Shown: positions 6,988 through 45,200, counted from the first letter of the whole stretch. The stretch: 63,516 nt of DNA, filler included, from Rhabdomonas costata (GCA_019059605.1; 40 parts of 40 records of this genome joined end to end with filler, not necessarily neighbours in it), one strand, 5' to 3'. Notes: generated by a model from the letters alone, not told the origin. Translations and numbers: made by a program.

Positions 6988-9602
6988 GTATGTGCGATCT
7001 CTTGCATCAGCTGTGCTGTGGGAAGACGGTGATGACGCCCTTGGGCGCTGGCCATGTAATGCGTGTGCGAGCCCACTGCACTCTCTGGGAATTCATTGTT
7101 AGACACCGCGCTGTTGGGGCACCAACATGTCACCTTTGCCGAACCCAGTTAACTGTCGCTGCCCCAATGGCCTTTTTATCGGCTTATTCCCTCCCCTTCG
7201 CGCAGCACCCTACTTCTGCCGCGCTACTCGTATTAATGAAATTCCTATAAAAAAACTATCATTCCTGCCCCATCCCTACCTAATTGTGGTTATCACACCA
7301 CACCAAGCATTATACCGTACATCACTGTTCATTATTACCATTGCACGATTGTGATCCTAGTTGACGCCCTGCCCTGCCCTCTGTCTTGAGTGTTGTCCCT
7401 CTTACCCCATCTGCCCCTGAGTAAAAACAAAACTGTGTTGTAGCATGTGAAGCATGAGAAGGTTACTCGACATCCTGGTTCTTTTAGCGTCATCTTGGGG
7501 GCACTGGCACACTCTACATACCCGCTTTGGGAAACATAACATCATCGAAGGTTCAAAACAACTTCACCAAATCATGAAAGATTCTTTTAGCGTCTCTTGT
7601 AGCATTTTTTACCCGCACTGTCAACAATTGAATGCAATACTTTTGTGCACTGTGCCTTTTCACTCCTGTTCTTCTCGTCAGATTGAATGGGACAACGTGC
7701 ACTGCATCATCTGCGAGCTCTATATATGGAGGAGGAGCTTCCTTCATCCGCATGCCTTCGGTCTCTCCGCACCGCCCAACTTCCATTCTTTTCCAAATCT
7801 CTTCGTCTTCTCTTCCTACTCGCTGCTGTGAGGCTTCCGAAATTCGCCCCAACCACNNNNNNNNNNNNNNNNNNNNNNNNNNNNNNNNNNNNNNNNNNNN
7901 TTAATTAATTAANNNNNNNNNNNNNNNNNNNNNNNNNNNNNNNNNNNNNNNNNNNNTTTTTGGGTGGAACAAAGGCAAAGAAAAAATGGTTGCGGTTGCA
8001 ACTTCCTTCAGGGGGACGTCTCACGGACGTCTTACCCCCCTCCCCCTCGATGGTTAGTGCGGATCTCTGCGACAGGCCACTACACCTTCCACCTCACGAT
8101 ACCTCAGGCCTAGGTTTAGTTATCGACTACTCGATTATTCGACTAGTTGAAAGTGACATGTTTTCTTCTAAAAGGCGAACCCTTCCCCTCCTATGGGATG
8201 GTCCTGCGAGACTGCTTTTGAGAAGGGAGGAGGAACCCGTCGAGGACAGTCTCTATTCGCTTCCGCGACGCAAAAACTGGGGGGGGTGGGGCCTAGCGAC
8301 TGGAAAGCCGCCGAAGGCGGTCTCCTTCTTTTGTGCGAGGCGAAAAGATGGCAGAGAAACGGAGGGACCCCTGCACACATTACTGCTGCTGAGCTGCAGC
8401 GCCACAACGACCCTTTGACAGCATTCATCCTCAGCAGTGCTGTTGGCGGTGAAAATTCCTTTGGTGCAAGTAAGTCCCATCTTTGCCCGGTAGGTAATTT
8501 GCCCTCCCACAAGTTGCTCCACCCGATTCCCCCCCATCCAATTGCCGCCGCGTTTTCTCTCTAAATGCCTGCACATATGCTCTAATGCCTATTCAGCAAC
8601 AAAGGCTCTCCAGCAAGCGTGCGAGGGTTGCGGTCATGTCAGCATTCCTCTTTTTTTCTCCACTCCAAGTCTCGCTTTCTGAATTTTAAAAACTTGTCAG
8701 CCGGTTTGCCCTTCCCTTCCCTTCAACCGTGCCCTCTCTCTACCAATGCATAGTGAACGTGGGGCTAGACACTTGAAGAGGAGTGTGCCCCCATGCGTGT
8801 TATATGGTTCGGTGTTGCATATATTTCGCTGGAGCGGGTGATGTCGCACGACCTTTTTTCTAATTTCTTCTTACATCGCTGTGGACACCAAGATTTTACC
8901 CGCAATTCGCGAACACTTTTTTTTTACTTTAGACAGGTTTTGGGAGAAAAATATGCTCCTCCCGGATGTGATCACCCATCTGGAATATACGTATGCAAAG
9001 TAGGGTTCACAAGAAACTTTGGAAATTTTTTGTTGCCCCAAGGGCCATGTGCAGACAGTATGAATGCTCGAAAAGCCAGGGTTGTAGCGCAGCAAAAGTG
9101 TAAAAAAAAAAGGCAGTTCAACGGGATTTTATGCCTTGGCGTTCCTTTTCGGTGAAGACACGGCTGCTGGGACCCTTGACGAGCGGCGATTATTGGGTTG
9201 AAATAAACGTGTCGATGGCGATATCTTGTACCCGATTAAGGTTCCACGCGTAAAAGTAGGTCTCTACTAGCGCAGCCCAATATGAAAACCGAGACGCTGT
9301 TTCTCCTTTTGGTCATCTGAACTTTTCCCATCAGGGCCAGGTGTGTACTGTCTCCTAGTTCACATAGGAACCCTCGCTCGGTCGCTCCACGCCGAAAACA
9401 TTTAGTAGCCCTGCCGATTCATTATCAACGCGTTTCTCTCAAACACTNNNNNNNNNNNNNNNNNNNNNNNNNNNNNNNNNNNNNNNNNNNNTTAATTAAT
9501 TAANNNNNNNNNNNNNNNNNNNNNNNNNNNNNNNNNNNNNNNNNNNNGGGGGGTGTGGCGAGAAGAGGGTGTGTGAAGGTGTGTTCTTCCTCTGTGTGTT
9601 AG

Positions 9603-10512
9603 GTTCTACCTCGCGACCTCATCGACCGACGGCACGGTGAAGATGTGGGACCTTCGCAAGCTGGTGAACTTCCGCACGTTGACCTTTGAAGACAGCAACC
9701 CTGCCAACCCCACCCATGTCAACTCCGTATGCTTCGACGTCAGCGGCAGCTACGTCGCACTGGCCGCGGACAACGTGAAGTACGTCATGCGCTCTGTTTG
9801 TGCGAGGAAGAAAACACTTGCGAGGGGCTTCAAAAACATCATTCTTTGATCTGCATTACAGAAGACCTGTTCGGTTACACAGGACCAGGACAAATGAAAC
9901 GAGCATTTGGAAGTTATTTTTTCTGTGCTGCAGTTGCATGGAAGGCCTCAGCAGAAAAATGCTTGGTTGCCTTTTCTTTTGTTGCGCAAGCAATGGTCTT
10001 TGGATTTTCGGTTTTGTATTCGCTCCTTTGAGCACGTAAGGTCTCGCGGGAATGCGAATTATATTTGCTCCCTGAAGTGGAGAGCAAACATCAAACAAAG
10101 CAAAACCAGTCGGGAGAGGGCAACGGACATGGCCAGGCGGTGTCGGTGCCTTGCTGATGATTGACCCAACCACCGGGCCGCCGAGGGTCCATAAACCCCA
10201 GTCACCTCAGTCACGCCGGACGCTCACCTTAGAGTTCGCTGCTTCTTGGAACCCAACTGAGCAGGCCTACTCAGACCCCCAAGGCCTGCTCGCGATAAAC
10301 TGCCTATAGGCACATTGGGTAGGCTAGTAGTGTTGGCGGGTTCGACAGTGGACAGTGGCTGGCCATCCTTGCGTGTGTGAGTGTGTGTGTGAGTGTGTGT
10401 GTGCCTTCATCCTAACGCCTAGAGACCAGCGTGTTAGACCGTGATATGGATTCGAGCCGACCTCGGTGCCTGACAGTATCCGTACCAGTGTTCTCCCTTC
10501 ACACCCAGCTCA

Positions 10513-10550
<38 letters not shown>

Positions 10551-11030
10551 GTGTGGTTGAGGTTCCCTCCGAGGCTCGATTCCTCTGGGTACGAAAGCCC
10601 TTAGACGTCTGAAGGCCACGGGGAGGGAATGAGCCCCAAAGGAGCACGAGAATAGCTTCTAAAAAAGGAGGGAACGAACCATGGACCCCTTTCATCCCTC
10701 ACTTTCACTCTCTCTCCCGCTGTCCTCTCTTTCACAATCCCTCCACCTCCACCACAGCCCTGTCACCCCTCGCACATTCCTTCTCTAAAACGCGAAAGCC
10801 GACCTCTGCCCTACAGTTGCAAAGAACCCGACGAAGAGCGTCCAAGGCCGGCGGAGACAAGGCCTTGCTGATCACTGAGGGGTCCGCCGAGGGTCGAGAC
10901 GCCACTCACTCCAGTAGCGCATGAGATCAGATCAGTTCAGACCCCTTTCACCCTCGCTTGCACATACTCTCACTTTCTCTCTCAGAATTTACTCCGTGAA
11001 GACCTGGAACGAGCTGAAGGTGCTGTACAA
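9603..11030 (+). CDS. PRP19: Pre-mRNA-processing factor 19, WD40 region (exons 9603-9779 and from 10986, partial)
   Basis: FYLATSSTDGTVKMWDLRKLVNFRTL...VCFDVSGSYVALAADNVK|IYSVKTWNEL matches the PRP19 C-terminal WD repeats ([26 protein letters not shown]...FDQSGTYLA...IYICKQW). GT-AG intron 9780-10985. Confidence 0.9.
10125..10198 (+). ncRNA. Degenerate type III hammerhead-ribozyme-like motif, copy 1
   Basis: CCTTG-CTGATGA core at 10154-10160; stem II GACCC (10163-67)/GGGTC (10185-89), then CATAAAC in place of CGAAAC. Direct-repeat homolog of 10838-10902. Confidence 0.4.
10241..10685 (+). mobile_element. Dispersed non-coding repeat, family A copy 1 (in the PRP19 intron)
   Basis: Colinear with 36721-37026 through shared blocks GCTTCT.GGAACCCA.CTGAGCA, GTTCGAC.GTGGACAGTGGCTGGCCAT, TGTGGTTGAGGTTCCCT, AAGCCCTTAGACGTC, GGGGAGGGAATGAGCC and AAAGGAGGGAACG. 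Confidence 0.85.
10403..10511 (+). mobile_element. Short dispersed repeat, family C copy 1, nested in family A between (TG)n tracts
   Basis: Colinear with 42744-42832, including the identical 23-mer CTGACAGTATCCGTACCAGTGTT. Absent from the 36.7-kb copy of family A. Confidence 0.8.
10838..10902 (+). ncRNA. Degenerate type III hammerhead-ribozyme-like motif, copy 2
   Basis: GCGTC (GUC triplet), perfect 7-bp stem I CAAGGCC/GGCCTTG, CTGATCA, ...GGGTC, GAGAC-GC; stem III GCGT/ACGC pairs. Two core positions deviate from CUGAUGA/GAAA. Confidence 0.45.
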
Positions 11031-11139
11031 CAACACCCCNNNNNNNNNNNNNNNNNNNNNNNNNNNNNNNNNNNNNNNNNNNNTTAATTAATTAANNNNN
11101 NNNNNNNNNNNNNNNNNNNNNNNNNNNNNNNNNNNNNNN

Positions 11140-25323: not shown

Positions 25324-27062
25324 GTCCTTGAAGGGGTTGGTCTTCCACCACCCCNNNNNNNNNNNNNNNNNNNNNNNNNNNNNNNNNNNNNNNNNNNNTT
25401 AATTAATTAANNNNNNNNNNNNNNNNNNNNNNNNNNNNNNNNNNNNNNNNNNNNAGGGGGCTTCCGCTGCACTGCTGCCGGGCCGAGAGCGGGAGAGAGG
25501 TGGTGGCTGTGGGTGGGCCCGTCACGGCTTCGCAGCCCTCGGGAGGGAACCGTGGCGTGGGGGAGCGCAGGGCTCGTCCTCGGGACCGAGAGCTGACCAT
25601 GGGGCTGTGTTTGAATGAATGAAAGCCGCTTGTTGTGCAACGCTTGCGTTTGGGTTAGGGTTAAGCAGTGCTGTTTATGCACCGAAAGCCCTTGAGAAGG
25701 AGGAAAGGGTGAAGGAGTATATGCGAGAAGGCGAAAAGCAGAAGGAGCGGTCGGGTGTTCGGATGGGGGGGGGCATCATCCGGTCAAGGAAGGATAAACA
25801 ATCAACGCTTTTCTGTGTTTCGGGGGGTCATTCATACTGGTTATAATTTTTGGTGGAAACTCATTGCTTGCTGGGATGTAGGGACGGGATTAATTTATCC
25901 GTGGAAGCCAGTCCGGAGCGGGCGGCTGACACAGGGACATGGCCTGCGAGGAAGGTTTCGACTCTGCTTGGCGATGCAGGTCAAAGCGAAGGCATGCGCA
26001 GTGAGAGGCATGCCGAACCCTCGTCAAGTCAGCAACCACACCGATATGTTCACAGTGTTCAAAAAAGAGAGACGCTCTGCCAAACAGCCGGGAATGCTAC
26101 CAAGGCAAAAGAGCGTCTCGGCTGATCTAACACCCATTGAAGCGCCATATTTCAGGATAACGCCGAGGAATGAACGTCGTTTTTAATAAGGTGTGAGAGA
26201 AAGAGAATAAGAACCGCAGAGAGATGTCTTTCTCTTTTACTTTTCTGCATGGAAGAACCTTTCATTGAGATGTTGACTCTTAACTGACGGCGCAGCTGGT
26301 GCACCATTGCCCCCACTCCACCACCATTCCGGGTGGGGCTACAGAAAGACCAGCTGAGCTGGGGGGGCGGGGTGCGCGGCCACAACCTGATAAACCGAAC
26401 GGAGGTGCTGCGCTTGCCAAGCGTGGGTAGGGCACCAATGTTAGGGCACGTAGGCGATTTCTGAGAGCATCAACCCAGAGGAAACGCAATGAGCTGGGTG
26501 AGAAGGGCAGCCACTGGGGCGGACGCTGTCAGGAACCGAAATCGGCTTCGCGGTTTCGAACACAGTGGTATGAAAGGACGAAGGCAACCCTTCTTCATAA
26601 GTAGCGTGAAGAAGGACCGGAGTCTCGACGAGTCGCGGGATTTCAGATGATGAGAAATGTACATCTCTCTCCCATAAATACGGAGACAGACACATAAAAA
26701 GACGCACGCATCCATGTGCGGTGTGGTTGATATCATGCACCATTGGGTGTGAATACGTCGGGAACCGCGAACCACGAGGCACGAGAAGAGACGCGACAAG
26801 ACTCACAGCTGGCTCAGGGAGGAGAGAGTACGCCTGGCTGAACACGCACACACACAGACACACACATACACTTTTTGTTCTAGTCCTTTCCGCGGGGAAG
26901 AGACCACGGATAATCACAACAAAGAAGGACACACACACACGTCGNNNNNNNNNNNNNNNNNNNNNNNNNNNNNNNNNNNNNNNNNNNNTTAATTAATTAA
27001 NNNNNNNNNNNNNNNNNNNNNNNNNNNNNNNNNNNNNNNNNNNNCATTCTTGCTGCTGTGTC

Positions 27063-35997: not shown

Positions 35998-36720
35998 TTC
36001 CTGTGTGGGTGAAGGGTAAACGTGTCCATGGCGGTATAACCGCAAATTTAAGTCCGGGCTCGGGCGGGTGGGAGAGGGCCCCCAAAACATGAGGAATATA
36101 CACACCACTCTGGCTAAAGAAGAAACTGCGCACCTCCGCTGTGCCCGAGCTGTGCGCTGAGCTGCAGGACTTCCTGAGGGGACGCGCTGGACAGGTCCAC
36201 CCCTGATGCACGTAAGTGGAGTATGCGGAGGGAAGAGGAGAGGAAAGGGAAACATATTGCGGAATCAAACCAGCATTGGCAAGCAGAGAGAGAGAGATCC
36301 AGAAAAAGGGGTCTCACGCTCGGCACCCATGTCTGGTCTTCAGGTTCTGACTCAATCACGGCTGGGTGTGTGCGCGCATGCGTGGTATGCGAAAACATTG
36401 TCTTCTTCTTTGCTCGAGCTGGCGTTCACCAATCTAACCATTGCGTACTGCAAAGCGCTAAACGCAATAAAGCACAAACAAACNNNNNNNNNNNNNNNNN
36501 NNNNNNNNNNNNNNNNNNNNNNNNNNNTTAATTAATTAANNNNNNNNNNNNNNNNNNNNNNNNNNNNNNNNNNNNNNNNNNNNAAAGACGGGTCGAACCC
36601 CTCCCCTCCCCTGCGGCGCCACTTCCCGCGCTTCTCGTGAATGCTCTCTCTGGGAATTGGAGCCCTGTGAATTTTTGGGGAAGTGTGGTGCGGGGCATGC
36701 CAGCAAGGCAAGATAGGGCC

Positions 36721-37026
36721 GCTTCTAGGAACCCAGCTGAGCACGCCCTCACAGGCCCACTATAGGCCTGTGTAGGTTGGCTGTGAGCTGCCTATGACCA
36801 AATTGGGTGGGATACTAGTGTAGGGAGTTCGACGGTGGACAGTGGCTGGCCATTCGGGCGTGCCGGTGTGGTTGAGGTTCCCTTAGGAAGGCTCGATTCC
36901 CCTGTGTACGGAAGCCCTTAGACGTCCTAAATCGAACATAGTGACCTCGGAAGGCCAGGGGAGGGAATGAGCCGACAAGGAGGACGAGAGTAGCTTTTAA
37001 AGAAAGGAGGGAACGCCCAAAATGGA
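36721..37026 (+). mobile_element. Dispersed repeat family A, copy 2
   Basis: Colinear with 10241-10685 but lacks the TG/family-C insertion; lies upstream of a PMK exon, probably intronic. Confidence 0.85.
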
Positions 37027-42566: not shown

Positions 42567-42743
42567 GTTAGTGTGTTTGGGGTGTGTGGGTGTGACCTTC
42601 TCAGTCGTCACATTGTCTTAAGTCTCGCGACTGCTCGAGACGTTCACCTTCACGCAACTTACCAGGTATGTTCCCAACCAGGCACCTGCTGTCCCCCCCC
42701 CCCCATGTTCTGGGGAAGTCCTGGTTAGGGTAGGGCGGGGGTT

Positions 42744-42832
42744 GCCTTCAGCTTAACGCCGACTCGAGACCAGAGTGTTAGACAGTGATATAGATTCGAG
42801 CCGATTTCTCTGACAGTATCCGTACCAGTGTT
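42744..42832 (+). mobile_element. Short dispersed repeat family C, copy 2 (downstream of the last visible USP7 exon, probably intronic; truncated by contig end)
   Basis: Colinear with 10403-10492. Confidence 0.8.
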
Positions 42833-45200
42833 TACCCAACACCNNNNNNNNNNNNNNNNNNNNNNNNNNNNNNNNNNNNNNNNNNNNTTAATTAATTAAN
42901 NNNNNNNNNNNNNNNNNNNNNNNNNNNNNNNNNNNNNNNNNNNTCAGTGACCTTCAAGGTGCGACTCTCCACTCCCACAAGCACTCCAAACCGGCACAAG
43001 GCAGTAACCTGAATCACGGCAGGGCTGACCTTCCTCTGGGTTGAAGAAACTCGACCTAAACGCGATCGTCTCCCTGCTCAGTGTGAACAGTGTGCTCAAT
43101 GTAGTTTTTGTACAATGCATTCAAATTGTTGCCTTTCCTTGTTTTGGTGTTTGTTTGCTCCCCAGAGTCTCTAGGCACAGCCGTAGTAAGATGAGTGCGT
43201 GTGTGAATGTAATCCTAACCTTAACCCTAAAATCTCACTCTCACTCACCTGTAGTCCATGTTTTTGTGCTGTTTTGTTGGCTTTGTTCTCGGTGGAGCCA
43301 GAGCTGAATTGACGAAGGCGGATTTCTAACGCGTCGAGCTCAGCGGATAGTAGTCTTGTTCGTGGTGCTTTGATTTATTTTTGTTTGGCTCCAGCGGTCT
43401 CTTTGCGGCCATACATATAAATTTCTGTGCAGAAAAGTGCAGCGTCGGGATTTGTGGCAACAGTGTGCTCCTTCTCCGGCTGCGCTGACTTGTGACAAAA
43501 TGGATTAAGCTACTTAGGCCCAGAAAACACCCAAGAGAATCCATCCAGCACACCTGCCCGCCAATATGCGCCGATCTTTCAAACGCAAAATTTTCCACCA
43601 CAGAATAGTGTCAAGGTTTGGTTCCCGTGCCGGACCTTATATGCGGCGCGGCGCCATTCGTTCAAAGTGCTACGTTTGAGCTTTCTAAGAGCAATGCCGT
43701 CTTTTTTGTTTATGCCGGCCGCTCGTCCCGGAAACGCGCAAGACAACATGGGGACGACTTTGTTCCTATTTGGAGATTGTTATTTTTGCATAACGAGGTT
43801 GCTTTTACTTTTGCCGACGCGCCCCGGCCCCGTCAAAGGTGATTCCCTTTCGGGCCCCAAAGCCGGAATTTGAAAAAAAACAATCAGTCGCAGGAGAAAG
43901 TTTCGCTTTTTCTCGCCGTTACCGGGGTTCTTATTTCTGCTTAATTCCCCCTCGTAAAACTTTCGATTTTCCCGCCGTCCCGCTTTCCAGCTTTGTTATC
44001 GGCAACCGCTGTCCACAAGACTCCGCCTTTTTGCGCCGACCACTTCTTGCAATCCGGTCTCTTGCTTCCTTTGTTTTTTCTCGGTCGTTTTCGGTAAAAA
44101 AAAAATCTCCGAAGGCATCGTCGTAAACGCGGCCGTGTTCATGGTGTTGATGGCCGGGAACTGCGGGCACCGCAAGACGCTGGAGGGGTGCAGAACAATT
44201 GGTTGGGGGACTTGGGTCACCGCGTTTTACCCCGCGGTGGTGCCCCAATGTGTGGCCGGGTGACCGGTGATGCTTCGGGTCCAGCTGCTGTGGTTGGATG
44301 CCGCCTCAAATGTGGGTCGAACAAGCTACCCAAGAAGAGGTCGTGATGGAAAGGCGGGTACCGGGGCATTGGCAAGAACAGACTTACTGGCAATTAAACA
44401 AAACCCCCAAACACACCCCCCACACCCACCACANNNNNNNNNNNNNNNNNNNNNNNNNNNNNNNNNNNNNNNNNNNNTTAATTAATTAANNNNNNNNNNN
44501 NNNNNNNNNNNNNNNNNNNNNNNNNNNNNNNNNTAAAGTGCGTTACAGTGTCGTAAACTCAGAACAAGCAATACAAATTAAGACCTTTCTCTGATACAGG
44601 TGGAAACAAAAATGGCAAGGGGATGGGACGATGGCAAGCACACAGGGTCCGAGGAGACCAGGTTTAAATGGGTCACACACGTTCCTCTGAGTTTTAGGGT
44701 GTAGCTATCCTTGCCGTACCGGGCACAAAAGGGTCAAAGTACACCATTCGGAGTGTACCAATCTGGAGCGCTTTGCGTCACATATGATCACAAACTCATC
44801 AACAGCTCAGAAACACCGCCCGCATTCTGCCATGTAGTCGAATTCATCACATCCAGGACAAAGACACGATTCATGAAATAAAAATGTCCAGGGCAACATT
44901 AACGTGTTTCAACAATATGCCCCCGACTCGTTCCTGAGATCTGATGGTGGTAACATGCTGATAAGGGTTTGCAGCGGTTACCGAGCCAAAGCCGTACCTC
45001 TAGCTCAACATGGACTGCGTCAAGAAGGAACTTTTTGATCAGAGATTGAGATACAGCCTTCTCCTCCGAACCAAAAATAGATGCGCCGGTTTTCTTGTTC
45101 CGATGGACATTGTTAAACGACCTCAAATTGACTTCGCAGGCCTCGTTCTGGTGACAGTTTTGAATGGTGCATATCTGACCTTGTTCTTGTTTCTGCGAAG

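Follow-up and report, generated by a model that had tools for sequence, protein, structure and literature searches.

Two hammerhead-like motifs in a Rhabdomonas costata intron as probable 3'-UTR fragments of a Chlamys-group Penelope-like element with a type III hammerhead

What kind of element leaves two broken, hammerhead-like motifs 714 nt apart within a single intron of a protist gene? The locus lies in a window of 63,516 nt from Rhabdomonas costata (GCA_019059605.1), the whole stretch of DNA analysed, which is made up of 40 unrelated contigs of ~1,490 nt each with N spacers between them; the motif-bearing contig (G000:C14618, or L001) occupies positions 9548-11039. Because the genome assembly consists of 104,289 contigs for 97 Mb, long repeats are fragmented in it. 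A sequence-only reading of the window had proposed an undescribed non-autonomous retroelement of retrozyme type, a 714-nt unit bracketed by two ribozymes and enclosing a dispersed repeat, family A. We argue that the motifs are very probably 3'-UTR fragments of a ~5.1-kb autonomous Penelope-like element (PLE) of the Chlamys group that carries a type III hammerhead. The ribozyme-bearing retroelement and the Penelope connection of that earlier proposal stand; its non-autonomy does not, the motifs belonging in all probability to the 3' UTR of an endonuclease/RT element.

The setting is the one first described, an intron of a PRP19-like gene. An exon encoding a WD40 repeat (9603..9779, plus strand) is recognized by its protein match and is followed by a GT donor at 9780; PRP19 is its best natural-protein match (E 6.5e-13, 56/58 aa), with two designed WD40 proteins scoring above. 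The predicted intron (9780..10985, plus strand) contains all of the repeats, and the downstream exon (10986-11039) keeps the reading frame. Both hammerhead-like motifs lie inside this intron in the sense orientation relative to the host gene, and the CT-rich end of the second element copy would furnish the polypyrimidine tract and AG of the predicted 3' splice site. Elsewhere in the window, the start of the first contig (10-83) holds a perfect inverted repeat of ~33 bp followed by (AAAGC)n, and a single contig at 22276-23763 has 26% GC as opposed to ~52% elsewhere, and is organelle or foreign DNA.

The two direct repeats (family D13) start at 10136 and 10850, at the spacing originally noted, and each carries a broken type III motif. 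Copy 1 has an exact CTGATGA at 10154-10160 and an intact stem II, lacks the GUC and stem III, and reads CATAAAC in place of GAAAC. Copy 2, whose decayed hammerhead spans 10838..10902 on the plus strand, still has its GUC (10840-10842) and stem III as well as a stem I of 7 bp (10843-10849/10861-10867) in which a double change has turned A-U into C-G; its core is broken (CTGATCA and GAGAC) and its stem II is down to 2/5 pairs. Neither copy passes a type III descriptor, and an Rfam scan of the window returned no hammerhead match at E<=5. On the spacing and on what each copy keeps, and in taking both copies to be probably inactive, the sequence-only reading was accurate.

That reading had also merged the two copies into one complete type III hammerhead. 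The merged form is no accident, as natural genomic copies do carry the whole motif. A genome search with copy 2 gave 101 candidates, among which 40 of 40 scored matches were positive, and exact genome occurrences of a 20-mer taken from the motif number 47, with 0 for its control. The motif comprises a stem III of 4 bp, GUC, a stem I of 7 bp, CUGAUGA, an extra U, a stem II of 5 bp, and GAAAC; loop 1 (GGCGGAG) is complementary to loop 2 (CUCCGCC), predicting a 7-bp Watson-Crick pseudoknot. The core order of cut site, CUGA, and GAAA, present in the family, is absent in both window copies. Matches overlapping the core number 78, of which 48 span all of it and 23 of these 48 pass a loose test; 12 distinct loci pass the strict type III descriptor, which finds 0 matches in 20,000 shuffles of one 340-nt copy. 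As the copies were collected by similarity, the intact share is inflated, and some of them are allele-like pairs. A topology test finds stems I and II closed by loops and stem III open. A type I reading was rejected, since in-register pairing with stem I fails for the bases that follow the downstream GUC.

The stems are also supported across copies. In the 28 of 39 full-cover copies that could be counted (the other 11, with large indels, being left out), 92% of cells are paired, against 31-43% in slid registers. Seven pairs show double changes, a number equalled in 1/500 shuffles; related sequences can beat shuffles, so this support is modest, and each double change occurs in a single copy among mostly decaying relatives, some of them being transitions. 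The loop 1-loop 2 contact is 89% paired with 2 double changes, and 10-33/1000 shuffles are equally strong. A tighter core pattern gave 81 genome matches, 36 of them in the element family by eye, compared with 53 for a control pattern, and no second hammerhead family was seen by eye among the 81; a looser genome pattern was uninformative (594 matches versus 578 for its control).

Conservation of this kind might nevertheless reflect a non-catalytic relic or a protein-binding structure, amplified by descent only. Rfam is silent, a scan of 20 loci, 14 of which bear the motif, yielding no hammerhead at E<=1; misfolding is predicted, in that the unconstrained (nested) minimum-energy fold does not give the hammerhead; and the extra U follows the core, all of which would suit a relic. 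An extra base at this core position does occur in some plant satellite and viroid hammerheads. Folding z scores are -1.2 and -1.9 for intact copies and 0.0 and 0.5 for the window copies. With the tail included, a rod of ~-36 kcal/mol is predicted against ~-24 kcal/mol for the constrained hammerhead, the pseudoknot being left out of the calculation. The tail from +66 to +102 of the cut site is predicted to be able to pair with the ribozyme 5' arm and core, a duplex equalled by 3-29/1000 shuffles, and tail pair-back as a gate on the ribozyme is suggestive only. In the tail of one copy, beyond GAAAC (L036:330-383, minus strand), a possible 2-bp stem III is followed by another GUC, with a near-copy of the stem I 5' strand 7 nt further on; this region may be what is left of a type I ancestor, or simply the pair-back arm. 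The distribution of insertion endpoints, taken up below, bears further on the relic.

How, then, do two copies of such a motif come to lie 714 nt apart? The "family A" of the sequence-only reading is in fact two repeats, a high-copy family B inside a low-copy family A. Family A (10238..10684) is inserted in the tail of copy 1, which breaks off at 10237 and picks up in register at 10685; family B (10403..10512, plus strand), flanked by (TG)n at 10374-10402 and 10513-10555, is the 5'-truncated 3' end of a separate, retroposon-like family. Element copy 1 thus comprises a first part (10128..10237, plus strand), 5'-truncated at the predicted cleavage site or no more than 5 nt off it, and a remaining tail ending in (CT)n (10685..10714, plus strand; 27/30 identical), and copy 2 stands head-to-tail behind it, starting near the internal (CT)n of the 3' UTR and extending to where the element ends (~10715..10985, plus strand; start approximate). 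The 714-nt spacing arises because family A, with B inside, was inserted into the copy 1 tail. As the sequence reads, the order along the intron is copy 1, interrupted by A, which B interrupts in turn, followed by copy 2 in head-to-tail orientation; the window probably holds two old, truncated tandem copies, the first split by later insertions, with both ribozymes dead.

A 714-nt non-autonomous retrozyme, consisting of family A between two hammerheads, has very little left to recommend it and is in our estimate close to untenable. Its length does fit the sizes spanned by plant LTR retrozymes (PMC7761336), but the DNA separating the motifs consists largely of two unrelated insertions, one nested in the other, copy 1 picks up in register beyond A, and the repeats and the hammerhead part company elsewhere. 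A genome search gave 5 family A matches on 4 contigs, and the 3 other contigs show no hammerhead element (the best candidate is one 34-nt match, E 0.44); conversely, family A is absent from all other hammerhead loci examined. Family B has 602 candidates in the genome, and none of 29 family B loci matches the hammerhead element. The earlier proposal had itself named failure of the motifs to co-occur with other family A copies as evidence against it, which is what these three contigs show; the other outcome it had named, a family consensus lacking the core, is not what was found, as complete-core copies exist. A further supposed link was GGGTCGAAC near 36590, at the start of a contig holding another A copy: this 9-mer has two occurrences in the window, 113/500 shuffles align at least as well as the 137 nt around it, and we reject it as a trace of the element, regarding it as chance.

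Both repeat families were also seen elsewhere. Family A also occurs at 36718-37015 of the window, where the copy at 36827-36926 is without family B, and in L016 (99% identical to the window copy over 111 nt) and L061. Family B has further copies at 42600-42843 and 26484-26700 (minus strand) of the window and in L002-L030; it shows a fixed 3' end, a variable 5' end, (TG)n targets, and tandem pairs, with a 16-nt duplication in L025, and shuffling gives its long hairpin no significance (z -0.34). In one locus, L156, family B and the hammerhead element stand side by side.

The hammerhead copies lead instead to a much larger element. Fourteen overlaps between contigs of this genome (113-587 nt, 91-100% identity) run from tail to ORF and back to tail, and the chain closes at ~5,123 nt, with the stop at ~4,631 and the cut site at ~4,982, ~141 nt before the end. 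The map, being a chain of contigs, could be a mosaic, and most pieces carry frameshifts or deletions. In order, it encodes an N-terminal GIY-YIG endonuclease, a KR-rich block, CxC, DKS, RT, a putative degenerate Josephin-like region, and a C2H2 finger, followed by a 490-nt 3' UTR with the internal (CT)n and then the type III hammerhead. Coding DNA and hammerhead share a contig in L102 (the zinc-finger end with the full motif), L112, and L056; no contig has both RT and hammerhead, and no intact ORF is assembled. GIY-YIG (at ~920) matches Pfam PF01541 at E 1.4e-4 and 22.5 bits, just below the cut-off of 22.6, and its domain has no Cys and no CCHH. CPC..HGHV (the CxC) and DKS precede RT in L136, and the RT motifs are GLPMGG and YIDD (L133; YIDD at ~3290). 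The RT call relies on these motifs and on homology, as Pfam gives no RT match on the element's own fragments; an AlphaFold model of the RT piece is poor (pLDDT 52), and a fold search with that model found nothing. The C2H2 finger is a weak Pfam match (E 0.02), and the element's own Josephin region, a remnant at most, has no Pfam match, with an hhalign probability of 4% and E 0.01.

The way in which copies are joined and truncated is that of a PLE. In six of seven loci (L035, L036, L153, L155, L156, and L157) the tail adjoins one and the same 5' start, which is a pseudo-LTR arrangement, and a walk 3' from L036 reaches the start of the same ORF region; the seventh locus, L154, has the element start without a tail. 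At least 7 loci contain inverted truncated pieces (L042, L080, L083, L114, L137, L138, and L155). Counted from the cut site, the 3' ends fall in a cluster between +127 and +144, and the 5' ends are scattered. Target-site-like repeats are found in L084 (20 nt), L088 (15 nt), and L085 (10 nt), and those of at least 12 nt occur in 4/28 copies, compared with 2.1% for cross pairs, a microsatellite and a tandem being among the longer ones. The flanks are rich in (CT)n, with pyrimidine fractions of 0.67 (n=44) and 0.62 (n=35), a weak test of microsatellite bias. Beside these, L036 and L153 have a GT...AG segment ~125-165 nt past the element 5' start, behind an ATG-led frame, which may be a retained intron as in other PLEs, and in L131:1390-1440 an element fragment runs into telomere-like (CCCTAA)n.

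Among exact-pattern copies with clean 5' ends, 4/21 begin at -1 to +4 of the cut site (p ~0.04, computed by hand and post hoc), the interval from +5 to +20 has none, and 6 begin between +21 and +33, at the 3' border of stem I. Insertions that end at the cut site are not in excess, as a relic would have it; however, 5' ends that avoid the one interval and gather in the next argue against a sequence passed on by descent only, and we give the relic little probability. Truncation also bears on whether a shorter, ~325-nt non-autonomous retrozyme-like sub-element, reaching from the internal (CT)n to the tail and including the window copies, spreads by itself. About 16 of the 78 matches start at the internal (CT)n, as judged by eye, short head-to-tail pairs stand in the window, L043, and L079, and non-autonomous Chlamys derivatives with common 3' ends have been described (PMC8557442). 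Yet L035 and L036, which start at the (CT)n, continue into the full-element 5' start, so that their template must have been a full tandem; 5' ends occur all along the ORF and UTR; the cluster is accounted for by microhomology to a (CT)n target; and short units were never seen in arrays beyond two, though contigs are short. Independent spread of such a unit is accordingly improbable in our judgement, and we return to the full-length element as the source of the copies.

The autonomous PLE would plausibly move as follows. It would be transcribed through its pseudo-LTR, and its endonuclease would nick CT/GA-rich DNA, often the polypyrimidine tracts of introns; target-primed reverse transcription would then initiate within the RNA, at the AC/CU-rich tail, where the tail meets the 5' start. 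Most copies extend across the cut site, and the tail-to-start junction is templated, which leaves uncut tandem RNA or a ligated circle as the template. Between these we favour uncut tandem RNA, and most templates would be uncut because the tail can pair back on the ribozyme 5' arm. A share of the RNA could be cut during transcription, since the ribozyme is complete before the pair-back tail is made, and such cutting would set the 5' end of element RNA within the upstream pseudo-LTR and account for a small number of insertions beginning at the cut site; co-transcriptional cutting is in line with the four 5' ends at -1 to +4 and with the start of copy 1 near the cut site. On this analysis the ribozyme likely serves to release the element's RNA, at the upstream pseudo-LTR, from read-through transcripts of the host, a role proposed for other PLEs (PMC4209133), and to judge from its sequence and position it would work like a PLE pseudo-LTR ribozyme. 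For a Poseidon PLE, internal initiation at an AC-rich site and the use of uncut RNA have been reported in vitro (PMC11167929).

The ligated circle would belong to the same element: tandem transcripts would be cut at both ends, the 5.1-kb unit RNA circularised, and reverse transcription would proceed round the circle, so that copies cross the cut site and, beyond one turn, yield a pseudo-LTR. The tail-to-5'-start junction is nearly identical in independent loci and hence templated, upstream pseudo-LTR pieces span the cut site (L035, and L036 from -183), and the predicted 7-bp pseudoknot with a stem III of at least 4 bp suggests a monomer-competent ribozyme, type III motifs being efficient in cleavage as monomers (PMC6155905). 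The same junctions, however, are explained by uncut tandem read-through RNA; in the only PLE tested in vitro hammerhead cleavage was dispensable and no reads ended at the cut site (PMC11167929); and tail-arm pairing predicts inhibition, though the shuffles noted above equal this duplex. We consider circle copying unlikely, and uncut tandem RNA remains the preferred template.

The protein relatives agree with the Chlamys assignment. Among 698 candidates, 4 are homologues of the RT piece at 40-44% identity, and two of these carry Josephin; P0002 matches the element from the endonuclease through the zinc finger. A profile search gave 3,447 cluster representatives at E<=0.001, and the endonuclease lies upstream of RT in 19/19 homologues showing both motifs among 154 examined; in Pfam the homologues give only sub-threshold RVT_1. 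The endonuclease resembles that of Chlamys-1_cBra, compared as text by eye. Motifs, homology, and this by-eye comparison, every feature that was tested, thus point to Chlamys, the group defined by Craig et al. 2021 (PMC8557442). Three related metagenome loci have no type III motif, their 3' UTRs being short or cut, and viral and prokaryote collections yielded no related loci. Two further observations concern the lineage. An RT thumb fragment in L058:1-126 (minus strand) is 79% identical to P0002, closer than is the studied element, and is by this measure a second Chlamys-type family in the genome. The RT relatives P0020, P0026, P0036, P0039, and P0046 have a UCH domain where others have Josephin, and two different deubiquitinase folds are, going by these domain assignments, found on one PLE lineage.

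What the analysis would add is a coding PLE parent for a type III hammerhead. We found no published type III hammerhead in a PLE, the primary Terminon paper, Lunse et al. 2017, and the plant retrozyme paper lying outside our search. The function of hammerheads in PLEs is not settled in the literature (PMC8557442, PMC7761336, PMC11167929). The metazoan PLE hammerheads are minimal type I motifs that cleave poorly and require dimers or protein, and cleavage by a complete type III motif, with its predicted Watson-Crick contact between loops, should be measurable in the monomer; a mapped ribozyme in a coding pseudo-LTR element would make the choice among cut, uncut, and circular templates directly testable. 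Type III ribozymes, so far tied to LTR-type retrozymes and circular RNA agents, would now be linked to a PLE, and calls of "no hammerhead" made with type I descriptors can be wrong. A bolder conjecture, which we regard as doubtful, is that PLEs with an N-terminal endonuclease, described as mostly without hammerheads, carry permuted ones, and that a tail-gated monomer ribozyme gives a circularised 5.1-kb coding RNA that is copied round. Were it true, permuted hammerheads (type III and type-CSG) would have escaped type I searches of these PLEs, and circle copying would explain pseudo-LTRs and give a PLE parent to type III retrozyme-like repeats.

Among known systems, the nearest is the Chlamys-1_cBra type (PMC8557442), with which the element shares an N-terminal GIY-YIG without CCHH, CxC, the DK motif, RT, and a C-terminal extension, as well as pseudo-LTRs, inverted 5'-truncated copies, and microsatellite bias. 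Its length is inside the Chlamys range of 3.3-8.2 kb, and its closest homologues carry Josephin as that type does (PMC8557442). Unlike Chlamys-1_cBra, it has a hammerhead, a Josephin region that is degenerate at best, and a terminal C2H2 finger. Files S1 and S2 of the same study list no hammerhead for Josephin-type Chlamys families, every hammerhead row of File S2 is type I, and no hammerhead core is seen by eye in the 3' UTR of Chlamys-1_cBra as given there (PMC8557442). File S5 marks two nematode Naiad 3' ends, Naiad-3_Nbra and probably Naiad_Hpol, as HHR_half_core (PMC8557442); by eye we read both as complete type-CSG hammerheads (CUGAUGA, GUC, and GAAA in that order), in which the stems would measure 5-6, 4-5, and 6-10 bp and the pseudoknot 7-8 bp, their sequences differing. 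Only two examples of type CSG are described in PMC10085705.

Compared with retrozymes, of which the plant LTR type has type III and the animal non-LTR type has type I hammerheads (PMC7761336), the latter derived in a preprint from PLE pseudo-LTRs (bioRxiv 10.64898/2026.07.22.740005), the family is similar in consisting of dispersed ribozyme-bearing repeats, with type III as in plants. It differs in its protein-coding parent, its variable 5' truncation, and the lack of a fixed unit between ribozymes, and its duplications are variable, at 10-20 nt versus the 4 bp of LTR-type retrozymes. Judged by a coding parent, by the want of a repeated inter-hammerhead unit, and by the want of a 4-bp duplication, it is, as its sequence reads, not a retrozyme.

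The hammerheads of PLEs and Terminons are type I (PMC7761336, PMC4209133). The element's ribozyme is like them in its core, in its sense orientation, and in its place near the 3' end within the pseudo-LTR, and is unlike them in being type III, in its predicted Watson-Crick loop-loop pseudoknot, and in its extra U. Pseudoknotted type III hammerheads have been described in D. pseudoobscura (PMC3088659) and in HDV-like RNAs of toad and termite (PMC7936874), and there loops 1 and 2 are joined by Watson-Crick pairing of the kind predicted here. Those examples, however, have an internal loop and an extra hairpin where the present motif has a simple 7-bp stem I with a terminal loop, and they reside in isolated genomic motifs or circular RNA agents, whereas the hammerhead described here very probably belongs to a coding retroelement.
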